Part shown: piece after piece, positions 3 through 32,277 of the stretch
Numbering within the stretch: the stretch's first letter is position 1
Layout: each line of letters starts with the position of its first letter
Assembly: GCA_018054005.1 (NCBI GenBank)
Contig: JAGPKI010000001.1
Location: 1 to 36,411, forward strand
From: Caldisericia bacterium
GTDB lineage: Bacteria > Caldisericota > Caldisericia > UBA6126 > JAGPKI01
Direction: 5' to 3'
DNA length: 36,411 nucleotides
Made by a program: the position numbers and the translations under genes
The notes under the pieces: generated by a model
Seen by the model: the letters and a program-made list of their open reading frames with translations, nothing else
What the model was told of the DNA's origin: nothing
Database searches by the model: none

Positions 3-335
3 GAGATTTTAGGCATTGAGTGTGAACCAAAATATTCTGAGCCTCATTATGACATCATTCTTAAAATAAAAATGAAATCTGAAAAACTTTTTAATAAATT
101 TATGAATTTAGTTCAAGAGGTGTCTCCCATTGATTCATTCATTACACCCATTCCGTTTGTTCAAGAGGGATACAGTTTACCAATAGTAATGGCTGGTGGG
201 ACATTTACTCAAGGATCATCAATTGAGTTTTCTGCTGATGGATTTTACGCTTACCCGTTTAATATTTATTTTCAGGGTGGACTATATTTTGAGCAATCCA
301 GAATTTTAGCTGAAAAGTTATTATCAAACCTTTAA
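3..335 (+). CDS. hypothetical protein, probably 5'-truncated by the window edge (ORF track starts it at ATG 72)
   Basis: Frame 3 is open from nt 3 (EILGIECEPKYSEPHYDIILKIK-MKSEKLF...) and is in frame with the 72..335 ORF. No obvious SD precedes ATG 72. I recognise no family motif. The stop TAA at 333-335 lies inside the 5' boundary motif of repeat copy A. Confidence 0.4.
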   Translation, partial: EILGIECEPKYSEPHYDIILKIKMKSEKLFNKFMNLVQEVSPIDSFITPIPFVQEGYSLPIVMAGGTFTQGSSIEFSADGFYAYPFNIYFQGGLYFEQSRILAEKLLSNL

Positions 336-530
336 CATTCATGGCATTTTTGCCACAACACAAGCATGAAAATAATAACTTTAATCTTTCTCTTGTGCCA
401 CTTATATAATCTTGTATAAATGAACAATTAAAATTCAATCTCTTTATTAAATATAATTTTATAATTTTGGAGTTATTATTTTCGGAGGAAATAAGTTTAT
501 AAGTTTTATATTTTTTAAGCAATAAATTAA
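330..530 (+). repeat. Intergenic repeat family, copy A (core 351-492)
   Basis: By hand alignment, 351-420 matches 31873-31942 at 63 of 70 positions. It shares the 5' box GCATGAAAAT(A/G)ATA(A/T)CTTTAATC and the 3' box ATAATTTTGGAG(TT/AA)ATTATTTT(C/T)G(G/T)AGGAAAT with copies B, C and D. Confidence 0.85.
366..419 (+). CDS. candidate small hydrophobic peptide, 17 aa (MKIITLIFLLCHLYNLV), inside repeat copy A
   Basis: ATG-to-TAA frame translated by hand. Homologous open frames exist in all four repeat copies, and the substitutions are conservative (I/M/L, T/S, F/L/Y). There is no canonical SD upstream, so translation is unproven. Confidence 0.3.
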   Translation: MKIITLIFLLCHLYNLV

Positions 531-547
531 AAAAATATTCATTTTAA

Positions 548-590
548 ATGTCTGTAATGTAGCGTTTACAGACATAACGCTCTATTTTTT
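548..590 (+). terminator. two mutually exclusive hairpins, the second followed by a T-run (possible intrinsic terminator of the copy A transcript)
   Basis: Hairpin 1 pairs ATGTCTGTAA (548-557) with TTACAGACAT (566-575), 10 bp. Hairpin 2 pairs AGCGTT (561-566) with AACGCT (576-581) and is followed by CTATTTTTT (582-590). Confidence 0.3.
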
Positions 591-700
591 CTTGAGTAAA
601 TTAGAAAAGAACAGGAATTTTGCCGTATAATTATTCTACTCTAATATTTCGAGGAATAAATTTTACCTCTTCTGTTACAAAAACGAAATATGTAAATAAA

Positions 701-740
701 TAGGTTAATTTAGGTTAATTTAGGATAATTTAGGATAATG
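701..740 (+). repeat. 4 x 10-bp tandem repeat TAGG(T/A)TAATT
   Basis: The units are TAGGTTAATT, TAGGTTAATT, TAGGATAATT and TAGGATAATG, read directly. The period of 10 bp is one helical turn. The array lies about 150 bp upstream of the 894 CDS. Confidence 0.9.
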
Positions 741-893
741 CAAGCAGATAGTTGAAAAATGGATATAATATATATATTTGTTTATGTTTTTAAGAAAAAA
801 ATTTAAATATAGGATTAATATAAATATATAGTAATTTTAAGAGCAAAACATAGCAATTTTACAAATTTTTTTATTAAAGATGGAAGGTAAATT

Positions 894-2085: not shown

Positions 2086-2243
2086 ACTTCTGAGAAATAA
2101 ACATCTAATAAGTATTTCTACCACAATAAGGCATGAAAATGATATCTTTAATCCTTTTATATTTTTTATATATTACTAAAAAACCTTATCTACATTACCA
2201 AATATAATCTTATAATTTTGGAGAAATTATTTTTGTAGGAAAT
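2086..2243 (+). repeat. Intergenic repeat family, copy B (core 2112-2243)
   Basis: GTATTTCTACCACAATAAGGCATGAAAATGATATCTTTAATCC ... AAATATAATCTTATAATTTTGGAGAAATTATTTTTGTAGGAAAT aligns to copies A and D. The upstream AACTTCTGAGAAAT is shared with copy C. Confidence 0.75.
2133..2207 (+). CDS. candidate small peptide, 24 aa (MKMISLILLYFLYITKKPYLHYQI), inside repeat copy B
   Basis: Hand translation. The N-terminal MKMISLILL is homologous to the other copies, while the C-terminus diverges. No SD. Confidence 0.25.
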   Translation: MKMISLILLYFLYITKKPYLHYQI

Positions 2244-2462
2244 TCAGATTAATTTAAGAAGAGAAAAAAACGTGAAAATAAGTTAAAAATTAGAGGAAAC
2301 AAAAGGATGCAAGGAAGAAGTTAGAGCGAAAATGATAAGATTTGTAAGGATTAAAAGCAAAACTAAGGAGTTTTTCAGAGCTCTCTTAATATGAATTTAA
2401 TATCATTTAGAAGAAGTGATTCACAATTAGAATAGAAAGACAATTTATTTAGTTTATAGGTG

Positions 2463-2490
2463 TTGACTTTTAATTTTTTTTAAATATTCT
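2463..2490 (+). promoter_or_regulatory. candidate sigma70-type promoter of the rpsP operon
   Basis: TTGACT (2463-2468), 16-nt spacer, TATTCT (2485-2490), about 50 nt upstream of the rpsP GTG. Confidence 0.4.
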
Positions 2491-5373: not shown

Positions 5374-6177
5374 TTATTTCGCCTTACTAATTAATTTTTC
5401 TCTTTTTTCAATATATGTTTCTTTATCAATATTAACAAATTCACCTATTATAATCTTTTCATTTAACTCTTCTTGAGATATGTTTTTCGCTTTTTCAATT
5501 GAAATGAGATTATCCTTCTGCCACAAGAGCATTTCTCCGGGTGTTTTCATATCATTTAATCTTCCGTAATAAACGGGGCATTGGGTAACCACTTCTATAA
5601 CAGAGAAACCTTTATGAGTGATTCCGTTCTTAATATATTTTGTAAGTTGAGGAAAAAAGTATGTTCCAATTCTTGCAACATAGGTTGCACCTGCACCTTT
5701 TAAGAGTTCAACAGTGTCGAACTTATTTTCAATATTTCCCATAATTGCTGTTGTTCCTTTTTTGCCTTCTGGTGTTAAAGGTGATATTTGCCCACCTGTC
5801 ATCCCATAAATTGAATTGTTAAAAATAATAACAGTTAGATCGATGTTTCTTCTTGCTGCATGAATTAAATGATTCCCTCCAATAGCGAGTGCATCTCCGT
5901 CGCCTGTCATAACAATAACTTTTTTATCTGGTCTTGTAAGCTTTATACCTGTGGCTAATGGAATTGCTCTTCCATGTAACGAGTGTGCATTGTCAAATTT
6001 TGTGTACATCGGGGTTCTCGATGAACAACCAATTCCAGAAACAATTATTAAATCGTTTTCTTTCAAATTCAAATCTGCAATTGCCGTAAGAGTTGCTCTT
6101 AAAACTATTCCATTACCACATCCAGGGCACCATATAAATGGAAGCCTCTCTTTTCTAATTAAATTATCTACTTTCAC
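5374..6177 (-). CDS. 2-oxoacid:ferredoxin oxidoreductase, beta (TPP-binding) subunit
   Basis: WCPGCGNG N-terminus and the GDGD...GGNH TPP-binding motif. GTG start. Overlaps the alpha subunit by 14 nt. Confidence 0.9.
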   Translation of the reverse strand: MKVDNLIRKERLPFIWCPGCGNGIVLRATLTAIADLNLKENDLIIVSGIGCSSRTPMYTKFDNAHSLHGRAIPLATGIKLTRPDKKVIVMTGDGDALAIGGNHLIHAARRNIDLTVIIFNNSIYGMTGGQISPLTPEGKKGTTAIMGNIENKFDTVELLKGAGATYVARIGTYFFPQLTKYIKNGITHKGFSVIEVVTQCPVYYGRLNDMKTPGEMLLWQKDNLISIEKAKNISQEELNEKIIIGEFVNIDKETYIEKREKLISKAK

Positions 6178-19178: not shown

Positions 19179-19228
19179 TAAACTACAATTAAAAAATTAC
19201 AGATAAATTCATATATTTATAATATTTT

Positions 19229-19256
19229 ATGATACTAAAACTTAAGTAATAATCAA
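19229..19256 (-). promoter_or_regulatory. candidate promoter for the apbE...sbcC block
   Basis: On the minus strand: TTGATT (19256-19251), 16-nt spacer, TATCAT (19234-19229), about 50 nt upstream of the apbE ATG. The sequence is AT-rich, so specificity is low. Confidence 0.25.
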
Positions 19257-19314
19257 GATAATATTTAATATCTTTAATATGATGATGTAATAAATTCACA
19301 AAAAATTCTTTTTT

Positions 19315-19485
19315 ATTTCTCCGAAAATAAAAACTACATAATAAAGAGATTATATTTGTTAAAAAGATTGAATTAATAATTATATAAGATTATACATAAA
19401 AGGATTAAAGATATTAATTTCATGTCTAAATCTTTTGTTTTTATATTAATGCACTCAAAACGGAATATTCTCACAGAAGTTATTA
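19315..19485 (-). repeat. Intergenic repeat family, copy C (most degenerate)
   Basis: The minus strand reads ...AACTTCTGTGAGAAT...GACATGAAATTAATATCTTTAATCCTTTTATG...AATTCAATCTTTTT...AAATATAATCTCTTTATTATGTAGTTTTTATTTTCGGAGAAAT. It aligns to the 5' box, the interior and the 3' box of the other copies. Confidence 0.65.
19373..19423 (-). CDS. candidate small hydrophobic peptide, 16 aa (MKLISLILLCIILYNY), inside repeat copy C
   Basis: Hand translation of the minus strand. It shares MK-x-I-S/T-LI, a Cys at position 10/11 and C-terminal LYN with copies A and D. Confidence 0.25.
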   Translation of the reverse strand: MKLISLILLCIILYNY

Positions 19486-19589
19486 TGGATGATTATTTGT
19501 AAAGTCAGGTTTAAAAAATTTTTCATATAGGTTAATTATAAAATTGAATTTTTTCACGTACAATAACATTTGGTAATAAATTTAGCTTT

Positions 19590-31407: not shown

Positions 31408-31851
31408 CTATCCTATCATCTTTTGCATTTTGTAATGTGGAATGGTAACTTCTATAAATTCTTCGCTTACCTTTGTGTAACCAAGCTTCTCATAAAATTC
31501 TACAGCTGTTTTTCTTGAATTTAGGATAATTATCTTGCATCCTAAATTTTTAGCATACTCTTCGGCATAAATTACTAATTTAGTTCCTATTCCCTTTCCT
31601 CTAAAAGACTCATGAATAGCAACTTGCCTCATCTTAATTTCGCTATTGTTTAATGGAGTCAAAATCAAAACTCCAACTAACAAATTATTTAAAAATACTC
31701 CAATATGAAAGTCATATTTCTCGCTATCTAAGTTTTCATCAAATAGACTTAATTTTAAAGGTTTTCTTAATACTTCGTCTCTTAATTTGAGTTCTTCATA
31801 ATATTCTTTTGAATCCACTTTAATTTGTCTTATCTTTAATTTATCTTGCAC
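31408..31851 (-). CDS. GNAT family N-acetyltransferase
   Basis: 147 aa with acetyl-CoA motif A QVAIHESFRGKGIGTKLV. GTG start with a weak SD, so the start is uncertain. Confidence 0.8.
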   Translation of the reverse strand: MQDKLKIRQIKVDSKEYYEELKLRDEVLRKPLKLSLFDENLDSEKYDFHIGVFLNNLLVGVLILTPLNNSEIKMRQVAIHESFRGKGIGTKLVIYAEEYAKNLGCKIIILNSRKTAVEFYEKLGYTKVSEEFIEVTIPHYKMQKMIG

Positions 31852-32100
31852 TTTAACATTTCTTTGTATTTCTGCCGCAACACAAGCATGAAAATAATAA
31901 CTTTAATCCTTTTCTATTGCCACTTATATAATTTTGTTTAAATAAACAATTCAATTTCTTTAAATTCAATCTCTTTACTATAACTTAAGTTTGATTTTAA
32001 TAAACTCGAATAAATTTATCAATTAATTAAAAGGAGGATTAATTTTGGAGTTATTATTTTCGGATGAAATTATCTGTTTAAGTTTATTATATTCAATAAA
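31851..32100 (+). repeat. Intergenic repeat family, copy D (core 31873-32070; contains an internal 15-nt tandem duplication and an insertion)
   Basis: Near-identical to copy A over the 5' box, the mini-ORF and the 3' box (AATTTTGGAGTTATTATTTTCGGATGAAAT). The interior is about 56 nt longer than in A. Confidence 0.85.
31888..31941 (+). CDS. candidate small hydrophobic peptide, 17 aa (MKIITLILFYCHLYNFV), inside repeat copy D
   Basis: Hand translation. It has the same length as copy A. Six nucleotide differences give 4 hydrophobic-to-hydrophobic replacements and 1 synonymous change. No SD. Confidence 0.3.
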   Translation: MKIITLILFYCHLYNFV

Positions 32101-32241
32101 ATAAAATAAAATAAAAGAAGACCTAATACATATTTTAATTCAAAAATACATTATTGATTATATGTCGACTTAAACCTGTTTAATTATATAATTATTAATT
32201 TAAGAAGTAATAAGTAAAATTATCCTTTCTAAAACATTTAC

Positions 32242-32270
32242 TTGAAAAAGTGAATATAAATCCTTAGAAT
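32242..32270 (+). promoter_or_regulatory. candidate hisS promoter positioned for a leaderless transcript
   Basis: TTGAAA (32242-32247), 17-nt spacer, TAGAAT (32265-32270). The A of the hisS ATG (32278) is 8 nt after the -10 hexamer. There is no SD in between. Confidence 0.5.
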
Positions 32271-32277
32271 TTACCTT

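Follow-up and report, generated by a model that had tools for sequence, protein, structure and literature searches.

A lineage-restricted family of interspersed, non-coding repeats in Caldisericia with features of non-autonomous mobile DNA

Described elements that resemble the Caldisericia repeat

Insertion sequences (IS) of the IS200/IS605 group, such as IS608 and ISDra2, integrate 3' of a 4-5 nt sequence via a single-stranded intermediate with abutted ends. Here, we report on a short repeat with a comparable insertion preference, four copies of which (A to D) lie between the genes of a 36,411-nt stretch of Caldisericia bacterium DNA (GenBank assembly GCA_018054005.1, contig JAGPKI010000001.1, positions 1 to 36,411; hereafter, the window). 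Like the IS200/IS605 derivatives—palindrome-associated transposable elements (PATEs) and IS605-type miniature inverted-repeat transposable elements (MITEs)—and like the REP/REPIN sequences, systems whose Y1 HUH enzymes are TnpA and RAYT, the Caldisericia repeat is short, non-coding, high-copy and intergenic. It also shares with them the lack of terminal inverted repeats and of a target duplication, asymmetric ends, internal complementary segments able to form single-strand hairpins, insertion next to an existing right end, and insertion directly 3' of a short sequence that is present on the left flank only; this sequence, TTTAA, is the pentamer documented as the 5' target, or target-adjacent motif (TAM), of the IS605-family element ISAam1 (PMC11224200). 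The repeat differs from these systems in that no TnpA, TnpB or RAYT gene with matching ends was found in the sampled Caldisericia loci, in that its complementary arms lie far apart rather than forming a tight subterminal hairpin at each end, and in that no strand bias was detected. It has no sequence similarity to any described element.

With classical MITEs, which are derivatives of DDE transposons, the repeat has in common its size (130-240 nt), its lack of coding capacity, its many dispersed copies and its insertion polymorphism, although it has neither the terminal inverted repeats nor the target-site duplication of such elements. The modular enterobacterial and streptococcal repeats ERIC/IRU, BOX and RUP and the Correia elements of Neisseria are likewise 100-250 bp long, intergenic, lineage-restricted and endowed with imperfect long-range complementarity, and they drive genome plasticity; ERIC and BOX furthermore form size variants via internal insertions or optional modules, as the Caldisericia repeat does. 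In Correia and RUP, however, the inverted repeats are truly terminal and a TA is duplicated, and BOX has a boxA-B-C organization. To our knowledge, none of these families shares sequence, ends or target with the Caldisericia repeat, nor are head-to-tail arrays of whole units typical of them.

IS110/IS1111 elements are site-specific, lack classical terminal repeats and produce no real target duplication, with subterminal inverted repeats present in IS1111, and their abutted-end (circle-like) junctions resemble the tandem junction GGAGGAA^CATYTC of the Caldisericia repeat (here and below, carets mark junctions). In contrast to these elements, the Caldisericia repeat has target information on one flank only and no evident junction promoter, and neither a DEDD transposase in the loci nor covarying loops of the bridge- or seek-RNA type were found. 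The attC sites of integrons (60-140 bp) are comparable in being imperfect inverted-repeat sites between genes with a YYYAAC-like motif at one end, direct copies of which bracket variable gene blocks. Unlike attC, the repeat comes without a GTTRRRY core, integrase or attI, the genes between its copies are of mixed orientation and include housekeeping genes, and most of its copies are solitary. The Caldisericia repeat is best read as a new, lineage-restricted family of interspersed non-autonomous repeats, a kind of element that is already known.

Distribution and anatomy of the repeat

The four look-alike stretches pointed out in an earlier, sequence-only reading of the window are true copies of one short repeat, each having both of its conserved boxes in the same order. 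The 5' box, CATGAAAWTRATAWCTTTAATC, is matched exactly at positions 365(+), 2132(+), 19424(-) and 31887(+), and the 3' box, in the same order and with the same spacing, at 464(+), 2215(+), 19342(-) and 32042(+), whereas only 0.01 matches are expected for either box from shuffled sequence (dinucleotide shuffles for the 5' box). A profile hidden Markov model (HMM) run on the window recovered exactly these four copies and no fifth even at E = 1. As had been claimed, the copies fill all of the long intergenic gaps, with one copy in each of the four gaps that exceed 400 nt (Table 1); this corresponds to one copy per ~9 kb. Copies A and D are closely alike, as that reading also held (86% identity over 99 nt), and B and C are more diverged, both by repeat finder and by MAFFT alignment. 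The motif AACTTCTG(T)GAGAA, which had been proposed to define a B/C subfamily, did not hold up, as it lies outside the element in B and is found upstream of no other copy.

The same reading had suggested that copies be sought beyond the window, and we determined that the family far exceeds the four copies found there. When 185,579 species genomes were scanned for exact-word matches to the 5' box, 24 loci were obtained, of which 21 were single chance matches in unrelated phyla and three were true copies in one Caldisericota metagenome-assembled genome (MAG); no true copies were thus detected in other phyla. A corresponding scan of metagenome contigs yielded 109 DNA stretches, mostly from anaerobic-digester samples. 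Across all fetched loci (individual loci are given L numbers below), the profile HMM detected about 130 copies, occupying about 48 distinct flank clusters, or sites; 73 of the copies are complete and non-identical. As the copies were gathered by an exact-word scan, the collection carries an ascertainment bias on the 5' box. The NMO protein encoded in the window is 100% identical to proteins that NCBI names 'Caldisericia bacterium', while more distant NMO homologues (79-81% identity) show no synteny and no repeat copies within 9 kb, and viral contigs gave no match to either box. We conclude that the repeat family is restricted to the Caldisericia lineage and that it is scattered between the genes of uncultured digester bacteria.

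The unit is modular and runs from CATCTC... to ...GGAGGAA (TTATTATTTTCGGAGGAA at the right end). In the aligned copies, the left flank is followed by a left module, the 5' box, a variable stretch, a central region, the 3' box and the terminal GGAGGAA. The left module comprises 24 nt, CATCTC(A/T)T(G/T)G(C/T)ATTTCTGCCACAA, and is missing from two independent truncated variants, which begin with CACAAGCATG directly past TTTAA. The variable stretch, located 3' of the 5' box, contains TTATATAA, and the central region differs in both sequence and length, being short in units of ~130-150 nt and carrying an insertion of ~70 nt in units of ~200-240 nt, such as copy D. Some copies also have a 3' extension module of ~30 nt, which ends in a second GG(R)GGAA. 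The ends of the family are conserved, and its interior varies in sequence and length.

At the right edge, information content drops from ~1 bit or more to <0.3 bit immediately past GGAGGAA. The abrupt end of conservation noticed in the sequence-only reading is therefore a sharp edge indeed, but family-wide it lies after GGAGGAA and not, as stated, after GAAAT; the extra 'AT' past GGAGGAA is common to the window copies and is present in only a minority of the other copies. The left flank reads YNYTTTAA, with 1.0 bit for AA, 0.5 bit for TTT, ~0.6 bit for C at -7 and -9, and nothing beyond -9. This information, which fades over nine positions and is weaker than that inside the element, is as expected for a target preference, and no extra conserved module was found upstream of the left end, where the flanks are unrelated.

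A point missed in the sequence-only reading is that the boxes are mutually reverse-complementary. The two form a subterminal inverted repeat with conserved arms of 12-17 bp, one near each end and 80-150 nt apart. GAAAATAATAAC pairs with GTTATTATTTTC, and C-G, U-A, two U·G and two A-U pairs extend the helix to 17 positions; among 60 distinct copies, 92% of the cells of this helix are paired. At the left, ~33 nt precede the arm, or 8 nt in the truncated variant, and the right arm stops 7 nt short of the right end. The repeat is without terminal inverted repeats: CATCTC... and ...GGAGGAA, its outer termini, are not complementary. A 5-bp left-end hairpin, TGGCA-TTTC-TGCCA, is intact in about half of the copies (pairs 33-36/41-45, 79% paired).

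Insertion, recombination and the case for a mobile element

The repeat unit inserts, as an empty site, nested copies and tandem arrays show. At the orthologous position that includes the empty site, loci L046 and L083 read ...GTTATTTAA^CATTTC...GGATGAA^CAATAT..., whereas L099 reads ...TATTTTTAA^AAAATAAG..., with no copy between and with TTTAA kept. In L055, two copies are nested inside an older, diverged copy, exactly at TATATAA^CATCTC...GGAGGAA^CTAAAT, a point at which the uninterrupted family consensus is TATATAACTAAAC. These nested junctions indicate that the unit CATCTC...GGAGGAA was inserted after AA without duplication, with an ambiguity of 1-3 nt that stems from repeated letters. Head-to-tail arrays have the constant junction GGAGGAAC^ATYTC at several independent loci, with six units in L049, and copy number is polymorphic, one unit in L068 corresponding to two in L084. 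An older copy can thus receive an insertion, and so can the position just past the GGAGGAA end of another copy. The base that adjoins the left end is C in 75% of the copies, while its right-hand counterpart is C in only 25% and T in 53%; these frequencies are incompatible with a 3-nt target-site duplication, and the empty-site junction, like the nested ones, is explained without any duplication. The copies are intergenic, with only three of 100 overlapping an open reading frame (ORF) by more than 30 nt.

In addition to inserting, the copies serve as recombination substrates, both for changes in tandem copy number and for the gain or loss of gene blocks between direct copies, and the site of copy A is a hot spot in this respect. 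In the window, it holds a single copy past the stop codon of a methionine-gamma-lyase-like gene; in L085, which has a 96% identical flank, two 100%-identical long copies surround two minus-strand genes; and in L138, which encodes a 98% identical NMO protein, two copies surround a different gene, of the Cu_amine_oxidN1/SNase/LTD type. Arrays of the form copy-gene(s)-copy are also found in L127 and L032. Nearby copy pairs are mostly direct (24 versus 4), while distant pairs are mixed (5 versus 7). Homologous recombination between dispersed copies explains the gene-block polymorphism.

Of the four possibilities that the sequence-only reading had left side by side (a MITE-like mobile element, a multi-copy structured RNA, a portable promoter or regulatory cassette, and a small-gene module), these results favor the first. 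The repeat has many copies at many sites, as well as sharp ends, an empty site, nested copies and arrays; what does not apply is the classical form of that proposal, since terminal inverted repeats and target-site duplications are absent. On balance, we regard it as somewhat probable that the family is a lineage-specific, non-coding, non-autonomous interspersed repeat that acts as mobile ('selfish') DNA.

In such an element, the arms of the inverted repeat would be the recognition determinant for a transposase supplied in trans, which may recognize them either folded into a single-stranded DNA hairpin or as a pair of inverted binding sites; being complementary, the arms would bring the ends together or form the recognized structure. 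Mobilization in trans may be effected by a HUH-type single-strand transposase similar to those of IS200/IS605, a mechanism that fits best because the ends are asymmetric, the target is confined to the left flank and no duplication is made. The tandem junctions, and the 3' extension with its second terminal motif, would also be compatible with a rolling-circle (IS91/Helitron-like) route or with one resembling that of IS110/IS1111.

Several observations weigh against a mobile element. As had been noted previously for the surroundings of the window copies, which lack a transposase, ~0.8 Mb of copy-bearing loci yielded neither an autonomous element nor a linked transposase. When 544 ORFs from these loci were clustered all against all, cellular families alone emerged, as did Pfam scans of the ORFs between or adjoining copies, apart from one unrelated rve-type IS; a motif screen for TnpB-like C-termini found none in 1415 ORFs, and no arrangement of a left part, an ORF and a right part of the repeat was present in the fetched loci. 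End hairpins of the IS200/IS605 type are weak, the 5-bp hairpin at the left having no conserved counterpart at the right end, and no strand bias was detected, 36 of 90 copies being co-oriented with positive local GC skew (p = 0.07), a measure that reflects replication direction poorly. A true empty site was recovered just once, with diverged flanks, which leaves the ends defined with a margin of 1-3 nt. All same-species contigs carry copies C and D, which are thus fixed, and divergence between paralogues amounts to 5-30%, with no sign of current activity in this genome; given also the decayed ends of B, many copies look old and immobile. Finally, the strong conservation of both arms could also reflect a cellular function. 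In favor of mobile DNA, copy B, which has an orthologous counterpart in L138, is 94.9% identical between the two strains, versus 94.6% for the flanking spacer; as it evolves like the neighboring spacer, it gives no evidence of selective constraint and is consistent with neutral decay.

The rve-type IS just mentioned, the only transposase-encoding element seen, was considered as a partner of the repeat and rejected as unrelated, as it is inserted into a copy and has inverted repeats of its own. This IS, with a DDE integrase core and inverted ends TTTGCCTCAYTTAAAATCTTGAT, splits the copy between AATTCAATTTCTC and GTTTCTTTACC, and L047 represents the same locus (Table 1).

Table 1. Coordinates of the repeat copies and of other features in the window and in related loci.
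Feature	Location	Strand	Description
Intergenic gaps >400 nt	window 336-893; 2019-2542; 19179-19589; 31852-32277		one copy each
Copy A	window 336..490	+	intermediate-length form, 155 nt; ends GGAGGAA
Copy A, left inverted-repeat arm	window 368..384	+	GAAAATAATAACTTTAA, within the 5' box of the sequence-only reading
Copy A, right inverted-repeat arm	window 467..483	+	TTGGAGTTATTATTTTC, within the 3' box of the sequence-only reading; followed by terminal GGAGGAA, 484-490
Copy B	window 2102..2241	+	short form, 140 nt; decayed ends
Copy C	window 19316..~19455	-	short form; left module eroded, left end approximate
Copy D	window 31857..32068	+	long form, 212 nt, with ~70-nt internal insertion module
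Inverted repeat downstream of copy A	window 546-590		9 bp, TGTCTGTAA...TTACAGACA
Tandem 10-mers	window 701-740		TAGGTTAATT x2, TAGGATAATT x2
Purine-rich stretch	window 2270-2392; L059 ~6000-6135; L138 5370-5490; partly L103 ~640-700		~120 nt, GTGAAAATAAGTTAAAAATTAGAGGAAAC...AAGCAAAACTAAGGAGTTTTTCAGAGCTCTC
Putative rpsP promoter	window 2463-2490		TTGACT-16-TATTCT
Genes with Cu-amine-oxidase N-domain	L085 8219-9820; L138 2337-3329; L127 8465-12055; L084 4223-6370		
rve-type IS	L125 4307-5700		inserted into a copy
Second repeat family	L125 3858-3915, 4113-4165; also L032, L026, L076, L093		next to copies of the repeat studied here

With respect to their immediate neighbors, copy A starts directly past the TAA stop codon (333-335) of the upstream methionine-gamma-lyase-like gene, which is part of the flanking TTTAA. 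Only 5 nt (TTTAA) separate the left end of copy D from the GTG (31849-31851, minus strand) at which a GNAT acetyltransferase gene is called to start; either the ribosome-binding site and promoter of this gene are inside copy D or its true start is an in-frame GTG located 33 nt further in. About 55 nt downstream of copy A, a 9-bp inverted repeat is followed, after some bases, by a T-run; should this be where the upstream gene terminates, copy A would be part of the 3' untranslated region of that gene. Four tandem 10-mers are located in the spacer between copy A and the NMO gene. Downstream of copy B, there is a purine-rich stretch of ~120 nt that has no Rfam match and recurs at an unrelated locus, L059, without an adjoining copy, as well as in L138 and, in part, in L103; it may be a separate conserved non-coding element or small RNA.

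The related loci contain a second repeat family, a G+C-rich hairpin, GTCATTCCCGCGAAAGCGGGAATCCAGGAAGTATTT..., that often adjoins the left end of copies of the repeat studied here, so that more than one repeat family is present in these genomes. Secreted proteins with a copper-amine-oxidase N-terminal domain are encoded by 25 ORFs, which are often located between direct copies and are not the same in close strains. The distance from a copy to a contig end is often no more than a few hundred bases, and two of the three copy-bearing contigs of MAG_4091 are as short as 4.5 kb (L006) and 2.5 kb (L022), which suggests that the repeat fragments short-read assemblies of the Caldisericia lineage.

Alternative explanations and implications for Caldisericia

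An alternative is that the repeat is a multi-copy structured RNA, in which pairing of the 5' box with the 3' box would close off an RNA domain, one version being an IS605-type omega- or reRNA-like scaffold with the guide after GGAGGAA. RNAalifold predicts the 17-bp helix, including the two U·G pairs, which are possible on the plus strand only; in 12 cells, a G-to-A change in the 3' arm has replaced G·U by A-U; and a few double changes occur in another short stem, CACAAG/CTTGTG, located around the 5' box. Moreover, the abrupt 3' end followed by unique sequence, together with the TTTAA on the left flank, mimics the scaffold-guide and TAM layout of TnpB systems. However, covariation is not significant (a score of 0.094 versus 0.093 in shuffles, 185 of 500 of which score at least as high), and changes on both sides occur at only one of the 17 pairs of the long helix, a pair that also has 24 unpaired cells. 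Most of the paired columns are nearly invariant, which accounts for the lack of significant covariation. Folding energies are barely below those of shuffled sequences (mean z of -1.0 on the plus and -0.6 on the minus strand), and the long helix and the CACAAG/CTTGTG stem are mutually exclusive unless an unlikely pseudoknot is formed. In agreement with the sequence-only reading, which recognized no Rfam motif, Rfam yields no match at gathering score for the whole window and nothing relevant at E up to 10 for positions 280-2560. The copies contain no consistent promoter or terminator, no TnpB-like ORF was found in the examined loci, and the spacer-like rate of change of copy B also argues against a functional RNA. 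With the invariant inverted repeat as its main argument, we consider a structured RNA unlikely.

Another proposal is that the repeat influences the operon next to it, be it as a portable promoter, as a regulatory cassette or by binding a nucleoid or regulatory protein. In its favor, each of the four copies in the window is directed at the following operon. A perfect TATAAT is present just before the 3' box in most copies (in the context TTAAAA-18-TATAAT in A and TCTACA-16-TATAAT in B), and the conserved 12-bp inverted arms could bind a dimeric protein. Yet in the larger sample, the co-orientation is lost: counting one downstream gene per distinct site, 21 are co-oriented and 23 opposed (p = 0.88), and the redundant set agrees. 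Neighbor configurations at 41 sites are similarly mixed, with nine convergent, 11 divergent and 12 and nine in the two tandem arrangements. As orientation is random across sites, the uniform direction in the window is a small-sample coincidence, of the kind expected once in 16 cases. Promoter-like matches are no more common in the copies than in shuffled sequences (12 versus 15.4), distances to neighboring genes vary from 1 to more than 1700 nt, and arrays of up to six units as well as nested copies are hard to explain for a regulatory site. Furthermore, rpsP has a promoter of its own, a sigma-70-type TTGACT-16-TATTCT that lies ~220 nt downstream of copy B and ~50 nt upstream of the rpsP GTG start and that, being perfectly conserved in the related strain (L138), is probably the real promoter of the rpsP operon. 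We therefore regard a regulatory role as decidedly unlikely.

To two more speculative roles, taken together, we assign a similarly low probability. The repeat may be an IS605-type unit that has lost its transposase while still making a guide RNA, with a scaffold ending at GGAGGAA and the unique right flank as guide, which would be used together with TTTAA by a TnpB-like nuclease encoded elsewhere, for retention of the element or for regulation of nearby genes; or the copies may be att-like sites of an undescribed system that shuffles cassettes of surface-protein genes.

The more specific form of the latter idea, an att-like or cassette site at which a site-specific recombinase moves gene blocks between direct copies, as in integrons or Xer modules, is very unlikely in our view. 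It would accommodate the three states of the copy A site, the copy-gene(s)-copy arrays and the prevalence of direct orientation among nearby copies. The blocks often encode surface proteins with a Cu-amine-oxidase N-domain, Cu_amine_oxidN1 proteins form the largest protein cluster in the loci, and the left flank, YTTTAAC, resembles the attC inverse core RYYYAAC. Nevertheless, the loci contain no linked integrase or recombinase gene, a GTTRRRY core is absent from the other end, and copies enclose a heterogeneous set of genes that even includes housekeeping genes. Most copies are found singly, at about 48 unrelated sites, those that flank a block usually belong to different subtypes, and ordinary homologous recombination between dispersed repeats accounts for the polymorphism. 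Two specific candidates were rejected: an integron attC site, given that the right end is GGAGGAA rather than a core site and that no integrase was found in the loci, and a dif/Xer site, for which the similarity of TTTAACAT was dropped, there being no second arm and no dyad symmetry.

Lastly, that the repeat encodes a small hydrophobic peptide (MKIITLILFLC...), such as a type I toxin or a leader peptide, is highly improbable: although an ATG-initiated ORF of 10-18 codons with about ten conserved initial residues begins in the 5' box of most copies, the ATG belonged to the search pattern, so that its presence is partly forced, and is still missing from eight of the 73 complete copies, no Shine-Dalgarno sequence precedes the ORF (the upstream sequence being CACAACACAAGC), single-base indels and varying stop codons change its length from 10 to 63 amino acids, and the 'codons' are conserved because the same letters form one arm of the inverted repeat. 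The small-gene module of the sequence-only reading is not supported.

No current understanding is overturned by a non-autonomous mobile repeat of this kind, which would gain in interest if a role as guide RNA or as cassette site were demonstrated. It adds a case of a TTTAA-targeting repeat that has neither terminal repeats nor duplications, and it could extend the range of single-strand transposition if the enzyme is found. Hardly any Caldisericia have been cultured, and repeat families seem not to have been reported from this group, a literature search on the subject having found nothing. Extrapolated from its density in the window, the family would make up roughly 1-2% of the genome, which would explain why the MAGs of this lineage come out as short contigs with ends near copies, and it provides a ready marker for strain typing. 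Since the copies mark differences in gene content between close strains, often in surface-protein genes, the family bears on the genome plasticity of a common anaerobic-digester organism.

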